Assembly (NCBI GenBank): GCA_000002435.2
Contig: CM018791.1
Reading direction: 5' to 3' (one strand)
Length of the DNA stretch: 64,000 bases
DNA from: Giardia intestinalis
Taxonomy: Eukaryota
Part shown: piece by piece, positions 18,818 through 20,700 of the stretch
Layout: each line of letters opens with the position of its first letter
How positions within the stretch are numbered: the first letter of the stretch is position 1
Translations under genes and position numbers: made by a program
The notes under the pieces: model-generated
Seen by the model: the letters and a program-made list of their open reading frames with translations, nothing else
Told to the model about the DNA's origin: nothing
The model's database searches: none

Positions 18818-20038
18818 TTACGCCTTCCCCCTGCAAAGAAAGCCCACGAGGCCGGCCACAACGGAGATCCCCGCGATGGCACCAGTGGAGAGCCCGCCCC
18901 TGTTGGTACTCATAGACACACAGGAGGTCCCAGCATCATCAGGACTGTACCCATCGTTGCACACACAGACAGAGTTATCATCAGTGGAGTTGCTGGGACA
19001 GCCATCCACGCATGACTTCCTTCCTGGGCTCACCTTCTTCCCAGTACTACACTTAGTGCACGTAACAAGGACCCCTTCAACTTGACCTTCGATCAGTGCG
19101 CATTCCAAGCAGTGCTCTATACCACCGCTAGCATTCTCACCACAAGGAAGACACTTCTTCTTATTCTCTGCATTGTCGTTGGGGAAGTGCGTTCCGGTGC
19201 ATGCGTTCCTGAGAATACAGCTAGTGGGATCGCCGCCTTTCAGGTACTTGCCTTCTTGGCACTCAGTGCATGTGGCAGGGGTGTTTGCATTTCCTGGTGT
19301 AGTGCACTTCAGGCACCCATCAACGCCCCTCCATGTACTGCCAGATGTATCTCCGCACAATATACACTTGCCCGCTTGCCCAGAAGCTGCCCCAAGGAAG
19401 TGTGTTTCCTCTGTACACGACTTGCACTTAGTATCTCCTGTGGCCTCACACGTTTTACAACTACCATCACAGGCAGTGCACCCTTTACTGCTATCTACAA
19501 AGAACCCGTCCTCACAGGCCGTGCACGTGGCAGCCTTGGGAGTAGTAGTATCACTTGCTTCTGTGGGCTCCTCACACCGAGTGCAGTGCAGCACGCCCTT
19601 GTACTTGTGGCTGTTTCCAGCCAACACTTCTTCAACATCTCCACATGGTATAACAGATTGGTGTGCATTATCTCTATCAGCATCGGGTGGTAGGAAGTAT
19701 CCTTGCACGGCTTGTATGCACTTACCAGCCTCTGCTGTTTCACACATTGTGTTGCCAGGTGCCTGGCTATCCTTGTAGCATTCGCCCTTGTACATGAAGG
19801 ATTCATAAGCGCACTGTGTGCACTTCCCATCTTGTTTTTGGTTGCATTCGTTGTTGTCTGCTGAGCACACTCCGTCCGTCGGGGCAGATTGAGACCCACC
19901 GCCGTTACACTGCGAGCAGTACTTCTTGCCGTTGATGATGACGCTACAGGTCTTGCACGTATTAGAGTCACCACCAGAGACGGGCGTGCAGTCGCCTTCT
20001 GCATACGCTAATTGAAGAACAAGGCCTATCAGCAGGAC
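18818..20038 (-). pseudogene. VSP with CRGKA tail but no initiator ATG (probable VSP pseudogene, or an assembly error at the start)
   Basis: C-terminus ...[26 protein letters not shown]. The ORF-track start at 19870 is GTG. The reading frame stays open upstream to a TAG at 20039-20041 and immediately encodes a signal-peptide-like VLLIGLVLQLAYA-EGDCTPVSGG... There is no in-frame ATG until deep inside the Cys-rich domain. Confidence 0.55.
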
Positions 20039-20700
20039 CTACCGAACACAGAGGACCCGACTACCGAATGGCTTGCGTGATAGTAGTGTTTGCCAGTGCC
20101 CGGGAAATCCATGGACGGACCACGAGAATATATTAATGTAACAGTTACATGAACCTTAAGAATAGGATAAATTTAGGATTAGCGTCACTAGAGTTTTCAC
20201 ATTAGCACGCTAGAGTTCCGTTAATGCTTCCGCTATCGGAGCGATATACGTCCGGCGGGAAACACATTGCTCAGTGCCCGCTATCGCTCAGAACTGCGCT
20301 ACCACCCCATACACTATGGCCCAAGCATTTTCTGCTAACCCTCAGTAGAGGCGTTTTGACCCTTCTATCCCAATCAGCTTGATAGCTTCTGCTGCGTTCC
20401 TATGTGCAGAGACGGAGGATCACACTAGCTACTGACAAGGGCATTCTGCCGGCCGTACATCCCCTGATGCTACGTAGGAGATACATTGCAGTTCATAGCA
20501 AACAAACGTCTAAGTAAAGACTGGCGTGCACCTGAGAGTGATGAATAGTTCATTCGGCTAAGATTGGCATATCCCACTGAAAGGAATTAGTGTCCAAGTA
20601 AATTGCTCAGTGGACATGAAGCAAACTGGCCAATACCTTACGCTCTATCTTGATGGTATAGTGATTATATACTGATCAATTAAAGAGTTAGAGAGACTAA

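Follow-up and report, generated by a model that had tools for sequence, protein, structure and literature searches.

A start-less VSP pseudogene of Giardia intestinalis WB, with an open frame probably maintained by gene conversion

Locus and open reading frame

The 64,000-nucleotide stretch of DNA analysed here (the window) comes from Giardia intestinalis WB (assemblage AI) and carries the relic of a variant-specific surface protein (VSP) gene on chromosome 3 (NC_051858.1). The body of this pseudogene (18818-20041, minus strand) is a TAG-bounded frame of 406 codons plus TAA, which runs from the TAG at 20041-20039 to the TAA at 18820-18818 and reads VLLIGLVLQLAYAEGDC... to ...GLVGFLCRGKA. The mechanical list of open reading frames (ORFs) records it as 18818-19870 (minus strand), with a GTG at 19870 as first codon. 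Translation bore out the initial annotation in that a further 56 codons are open upstream of this GTG, up to the TAG. The assignment to the VSP family was likewise upheld, both by a match to Pfam PF03302 (E=3e-24) and by a homologue search with the ORF that found 486 sequences (best E=2e-216). With 43 cysteines (10.6%) and 14 CXXC motifs, the 406 codons encode the cysteine-rich ectodomain that belongs to a functional VSP.

The first in-frame ATG (MYKGECY...; 19795-19797, minus strand) is the start of the 325-residue conceptual product in published catalogues. Its context, CTTCatgTA, shows no signal peptide, no initiator (Inr) and no A/T-rich promoter surroundings. The ORF from this ATG is identical to GL50803_0050288 on NC_051858.1 (bioRxiv 10.1101/2022.03.07.483299, Table S7), an entry classed as "pVSP" with no signal peptide, an RGKA tail and a conceptual ORF of 325 residues, and labelled 'isolated pVSP' in Table S6, where its extended poly(A) signal is marginal (q=0.07). 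The statistics of this ORF (325 residues, 34 cysteines, 11 CXXC, chromosome 3, no Inr) also agree with those of vsp-99 (Adam 2010 list, PMC2996952). An exact-sequence look-up identified the neighbouring proteins as entries of WB in RefSeq, all on the 1.97-Mb chromosome, among them the 848-residue ankyrin protein (XP_001706315.1 / KAE8302779.1) and the 151-residue GL50803_17241; their accession series has no slot for a protein at the pseudogene locus. A search for the locus tag in the main texts of papers found no occurrence. The VSP copy is a pseudogene already known and catalogued in the WB reference (GL50803_0050288, vsp-99), in agreement with the suggestion of the initial annotation that it is a start-less copy or pseudogene.

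Loss of the start codon and decay of the gene

Two intact VSP paralogues of the assemblage E isolate P15, P0006 and P0004, have leaders reading MFGRLLLLGFVLQL... and MFYTFLWIGLVLQL..., respectively. In a DNA alignment, their ATG, embedded in CAatgTT, falls on a GTG of the WB copy (CTgtgTT; 20047-20049, minus strand) which does not share the frame of the body. Homology to both paralogues spans the leader and, for P0006, extends into the upstream region as well. A second lesion, the deletion of one nucleotide (20037-20038, minus strand), lies after the fourth leader codon (AGG), where WB reads GGTAGG-TCCTG, the syntenic P15 copy GGCAGGCTCCTG and P0006 GGTAGACTCTTG. Because this deletion shifts GGT AGG, a TAG comes to stand in the body frame, composed of the T of GGT and the AG of AGG, that is, the Gly-Arg of an MFGR leader in the shifted frame. 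From the GTG at 20049-20047 the frame ends after six codons (TGA 20031-20029), and this position has neither the PyAatgTT Inr start nor the directly following signal peptide of a functional VSP. The ancestral gene would have begun ATG TTC GGT AGG (MFGR...) within the VSP initiator CAatgTT. The TAG as a mutated ATG was rejected, since the paralogue alignment places the start 8 nucleotides upstream. The base correction named by the initial annotation as a refutation of its reading, cta to cat at 20039-20041, is in the wrong position, as the start belongs at 20049-20047 and the TAG stems from the deletion.

Immediately behind the TAG lies the remnant of the signal-peptide coding region (VLLIGLVLQLAYA, then EG; 20000-20038, minus strand), cut off from any start codon. 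These first 13 codons, which continue into EGDC, match intact VSPs across the leader and the cleavage region (MFYTFLWIGLVLQLVRA/EGEC and MFGRLLLLGFVLQLTHA/EGEC). The nearest minus-strand ATG above the TAG, at 20112-20110, is 68 nucleotides away and in a different frame, as expected from the earlier statement that none occurs for more than 60 nucleotides. It opens a 27-codon upstream ORF (MDFPGTGKHYYHASHSVVGSSVFGRSC, then TGA-TAG; 20026-20112, minus strand) that shares its frame with the ancestral leader. This upstream ATG is kept in P15, in frame with the VSP, and is ATA in the other assemblage-A isolates. A programmed -1 frameshift joining it to the body was ruled out by the absence of a slippery heptamer from AGGTCCTGCTGA. 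A short direct repeat, ATTCGGTAGT (20068-20059, minus strand) and GTTCGGTAGG (20046-20037, minus strand), flanks the lost start. An equivalent pair (CATTCGGTGATC ... ATGTTCGGTAGAC) occurs in the intact paralogue P0006, one member ahead of the start and the other at it, so that the repeat predates the pseudogene.

The syntenic locus was compared in four further assemblage-A assemblies, namely L001 and L012 (ENA metagenome), L011 (DH, AII) and L006 (Logan). The L001 scaffold is 96.8% identical to the window over 13 kb. An identical string, GTGTTCGGTAGGTCCTGCTGATAGG, spans the TAG site in all four, and the GTG, the one-nucleotide deletion and the TAG are common to them. The start lesions are not a base-calling error, because five assemblies of different projects agree; the sequence error at the TAG or ATG that had been offered as an alternative is refuted by the very comparison with other isolates' orthologous VSP that had been proposed to check it. 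Judged by this comparison, the lesions were present before the examined assemblage-A isolates diverged. P0006 and P0003 were considered as orthologues and ruled out, as both are found at unrelated loci.

In assemblage E, the syntenic copy of P15 (L005, ACVC01000096.1, 5244-7192, minus strand) adjoins the orthologous ankyrin gene. Its canonical start codon reads ATA, the extra base is kept, and the upstream ATG and the leader share one frame (MASSDISRRGYHASHSAIGSSIVGRLLLIGL...). At ~650 codons it is longer than the WB copy, it ends in HRRKARF, not CRGKA, and a frameshift around L005 6770-6790, close to an AGAAAGG run, divides it between two frames. The codons GTG (assemblage A) and ATA (assemblage E) both differ from ATG by a single step, which would fit an independent loss of the canonical ATG. 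The A2-type copies possess an in-frame ATG immediately behind the leader (MQNAIEEC), and the DH copy (L011, AHGT01000016.1, ~4000-4480) is annotated as VSP protein ESU38150.1 starting with these residues, though leaderless. In distant lineages (69-71% ankyrin protein identity), Logan contigs carrying the ankyrin orthologue stop ~175-185 nucleotides upstream of the ankyrin gene; the L006 contig (98% identity of the ankyrin protein) stops ~790 nucleotides upstream, within the VSP. The contig ends in L006, L007 and L009 are consistent with repeated VSP-like sequence breaking short-read assemblies there.

Decay is not confined to the start. The C-terminal anchor (18821-18892, minus strand) is truncated by two in-frame 15-nucleotide deletions, with loss of AVIVV and WWFxC. 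Motifs were counted over 120 homologues, 81 of which carry the LSTG motif. From LSTG to the C-terminus the pseudogene has 24 residues, whereas 69 of these 81 have 34. Elsewhere among the 120 homologues, the loss of ten residues recurs only in the syntenic copy P0002, and the anchor of its cluster mate P0157 is the same. The pseudogene accordingly lacks ten residues of the conserved transmembrane domain of ~25 residues that marks a functional VSP. A further hallmark, GGCY, is changed to GECY; GGCY was found in 112 of the 120 homologues, and the substituted position is G in 105 of 107 occurrences of the motif context. The extended VSP poly(A) signal (AGTTAAGTAGTGAGC; 18792-18806, minus strand), 11 nucleotides past the stop, is degenerate, with three mismatches to ACTYAGRTAGTRAAY, of which one falls within the AGTRAAY core. 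The CRGKA tail directly before the TAA is that of a functional VSP; the syntenic copies end in CQGKT (L001, L012 and the retained old end of DH) or HRRKARF (P15). The earlier description of an intact CRGKA tail and signal peptide overstates the state of the gene: for the tail only the last five residues bear it out, and the transmembrane domain is truncated, GGCY mutated and the poly(A) signal degenerate. As a positive control, the 128-residue mini-VSP VSP4A1 (XP_001706303.1; 342-728, minus strand) was taken from the same window. It has a CAatgTT initiator, a block of 34 residues from LSTG to CRGKA and a perfect ACTTAGGTAGTAAAC (326-340), 2 nucleotides past the stop.

Gene conversion and the flanking regions

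Between WB and L001, the flanking genes are 97.8-99.8% identical, the 5' flank 99.0% and the 3' flank 95.9%; the pseudogene body reaches 83.6%. The mosaic test compared three sequences, WB, L001 and L002, the last being a paralogue at another locus in the genome of L001. The 242 informative sites form 57 runs, as against 154 +/- 7 on shuffling, and a count as low as this did not arise in any of 10,000 permutations. Over 19724-19488, a stretch of 68 consecutive informative sites in which L001 diverges, WB agrees with L002 at 67, and L001 equals L002 at 51 consecutive informative sites over 19474-19044. A WB-specific gene-conversion tract (19488-19993, minus strand) is 90-100% identical to P0001 (L002) and 62-70% identical to the syntenic copies of the other assemblage-A isolates. 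L001 and L002 are 100% identical across hundreds of bases.

The direction of two events can be read. In the L001 tract, L012 and DH keep the state of WB where L001 was converted. In the WB tract, three other assemblage-A isolates hold the non-WB state, which the P15 protein also resembles. As polarised by these alignments, the pseudogene is the acceptor in both. A third event was observed in DH, in which an insertion of ~283 nucleotides at the position corresponding to 18962/18963 of the window supplies an intact anchor, CRGKA, a TGA stop and a good poly(A) motif (ACTCAGGTAGTGAAT); the old truncated end with CQGKT follows the inserted intact 3' end. Between WB and L012, dS is 0.137 and dN/dS 0.34 (3' 708 nucleotides of the ORF), while the flanks diverge by 1-4%. 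This silent divergence, far in excess of that of the flanks, together with the mosaic runs, points to recurrent gene conversion into the body, which probably keeps the frame open.

The closest paralogue, P0001 (L002 ~6050-6070, ENA scaffold_239; 81% identity), has ATA at the canonical start site (ITFYAVFLISLALQLA...) and reads EEY where the cysteine of the first EEC would be. The gene caller placed its start at an upstream ATG, and this paralogue, too, may lack a start. Just upstream of the pseudogene body, at 20042-20116, WB differs from L001 at 8 of 71 positions (89% identity), the other assemblage-A isolates being largely as L001, and the next 588 nucleotides upstream hold just 6 differences (99.0%). 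The divergent segment may be the edge of a conversion tract or may reflect relaxed constraint on a dead promoter.

The ORF-free 5' flank (20113-20700) is shared with the divergent ankyrin gene (20701 onwards), and the ORF-free 3' flank (18408-18817) lies between the pseudogene and a convergent gene of 134 residues. The 660-nucleotide gap on the 5' side is the largest in the window and the 410-nucleotide gap on the 3' side among the largest, most gaps being below 100 nucleotides, so that the flanks had rightly been singled out as unusually long. The mean and median intergenic sizes of G. intestinalis are 470 and 81 bp (PMC7641422). A structured RNA in the flanks was ruled out by an Rfam scan of 17000-22000, which gave no family match at E<=1. 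Further VSP remnants were rejected as well, as BLAST matches of other VSP loci reach only ~30 nucleotides past the TAG; tblastn of the VSP against the window found no additional VSP sequence. The locus coincides with a synteny break between WB and P15, the far side being occupied by a myotubularin-related gene in P15 and by the 134-residue gene and GL50803_17241 in WB. VSPs are a common category at synteny breaks (PMC3091692). Elsewhere in the window, 600 nucleotides from VSP4A1, a cysteine-rich ORF of 212 residues (1328-1966, minus strand) with a leader-like N-terminus, a C-terminal hydrophobic segment and no CRGKA tail resembles a member of the HCMP/CRMP family.

Interpretation and comparison with known systems

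Taken together, the locus would be a non-functional relic of a VSP gene that is kept open by gene conversion from other VSP copies, a reading to which we assign a probability of roughly 0.85. The canonical start is lost (CAatgTT to CTgtgTT) in all assemblage-A genomes examined. Deletion of one base after AGG ends the leader frame after six codons, and the frame of signal peptide and ectodomain thereby begins just behind an out-of-frame TAG. Further decay comprises the two 15-nucleotide anchor deletions, the change of GGCY to GECY and the degenerate poly(A) motif. Segments of the body, as the mosaic suggests, would have been overwritten repeatedly from other VSP copies, and the 406-codon frame would thus stay open. 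Giardia mRNAs have very short leaders and are translated from the first AUG, so no VSP with a signal peptide would be expected from the locus. Judged by its sequence, the locus falls outside the definition of a functional VSP on start and Inr, GGCY and transmembrane domain. It is a VSP-like sequence without a start-linked signal peptide, as in the pVSP class, a 'pseudogene with ORF but without signal peptide' (bioRxiv 10.1101/2022.03.07.483299).

Several points weigh against this reading. The pseudogene assignment is built on sequence comparison. None of the five assemblage-A copies has lost the open frame, and the dN/dS of 0.34 between syntenic copies would alone suggest constraint, although it can be attributed to sequence imported from selected paralogues and would then not reflect constraint in situ. 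The frameshift of the P15 copy may be a 454 homopolymer artefact, in which case that copy may be intact and the death of the gene would postdate the split of assemblages A and E. Finally, the WB sequence in which a donor could be sought spanned 64 kb.

A possible, if unlikely, alternative is retention of the locus as a silent donor cassette from which pieces are copied into expressed VSP genes, creating surface variants. The strong mosaic signal between the pseudogene locus and its paralogues speaks for it, as do the long stretches of complete identity between L001 and L002 at different loci, and a copy persists at one site in assemblages A and E. The idea of a reservoir is itself published: such a role is proposed for the psiVSP arrays of G. 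muris, which are essentially untranscribed (PMC7641422), and, in general terms, for the pVSPs of WB, a preprint regarding incomplete VSPs as a sequence reservoir (bioRxiv 10.1101/2022.03.07.483299). Both events that could be polarised, however, had the pseudogene as acceptor, and the data are accounted for no less well by passive persistence. A related proposal, that a solitary pseudogene has served at one core-genome site since before the A/E split as a two-way recombination partner outside any array, appears rather doubtful. If true, it would describe an archival cassette for antigenic diversification that receives from and donates to expressed VSPs; acceptor events and persistence are what was seen of it.

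It is considerably harder to see the locus as a source of protein that would begin at an internal or non-AUG codon (ATG 19795, GTG 19870 or the A2-type MQNAIEEC) and be leaderless, cysteine-rich and anchored at its C-terminus. The retained open frame and the dN/dS value would suit such a product, as would the A2-type ATG behind the leader and the protein annotation in DH, and an earlier report of 'VSPs' without signal peptide localised at the membrane is mentioned in the preprint (bioRxiv 10.1101/2022.03.07.483299). Against these stand the bare context of the ATG at 19795, the truncated anchor, the degenerate poly(A) signal and, in relatives, the drift of the tail to CQGKT; in both the reference annotation and the preprint the gene is classed as a pseudogene. 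A sequencing or assembly error concealing an intact VSP gene, for which the oddity of a complete-looking frame is the sole argument, can practically be set aside, since five independent assemblies have the same bases and a repair would take no fewer than two changes (GTG to ATG and one inserted base) and would still leave the anchor truncated. Equally negligible is a start codon on an upstream exon joined to the body by cis- or trans-splicing: a few such genes exist in Giardia (PMC7641422, Table 1), but a scan of the minus strand over 20000-20720 found neither the GTATGT donor nor the [AC]CT[AG]AC branch/acceptor motif, and homology to unspliced VSP leaders continues uninterrupted across the start region.

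For the reading as a relic maintained by conversion, the significance beyond annotation hygiene is small, as the pseudogene was flagged already, is mechanistically unremarkable for Giardia, and exchange between pseudo-VSPs and live VSPs has been published. What is added here is the exact lesions, their age within assemblage A and the polarised conversion into a dead VSP copy. For annotators, the orthologue in DH is a caution, ESU38150.1 being called a VSP protein despite having no leader.

VSP copies without start or leader are well documented. For the WB reference, 133 VSPs and 208 psiVSPs are given (PMC7641422), and the pseudogene is itself a member of the pVSPs of WB (GL2.1 reference, bioRxiv 10.1101/2022.03.07.483299). 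That catalogue differs in that it starts the ORF at the internal ATG and leaves unrecorded the leader 82 codons upstream in the same frame and the mutations that removed the start. Adam 2010 (PMC2996952) likewise took VSPs in the interior of contigs that end in CRGKA and have no usable start as pseudogenes; vsp-99, however, was counted as 'complete' owing to its in-frame ATG, and the three ATG-less examples given are shorter (224-902 nucleotides). The telomeric psiVSP arrays of G. muris (PMC7641422) are alike in consisting of copies without signal peptide, and between these and intact VSPs sequence is exchanged through recombination or gene conversion. In contrast to these arrays, the WB copy is solitary and located not in a subtelomeric position but in a gene-dense core region at the WB/P15 synteny break, and acceptor events only could be shown there. 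VSP4A1 shares the family, the C-terminal block and the class of poly(A) motif with the pseudogene, and differs from it in retaining the initiator, the full-length block and the perfect motif, all three of which have been lost or degraded in the relic.
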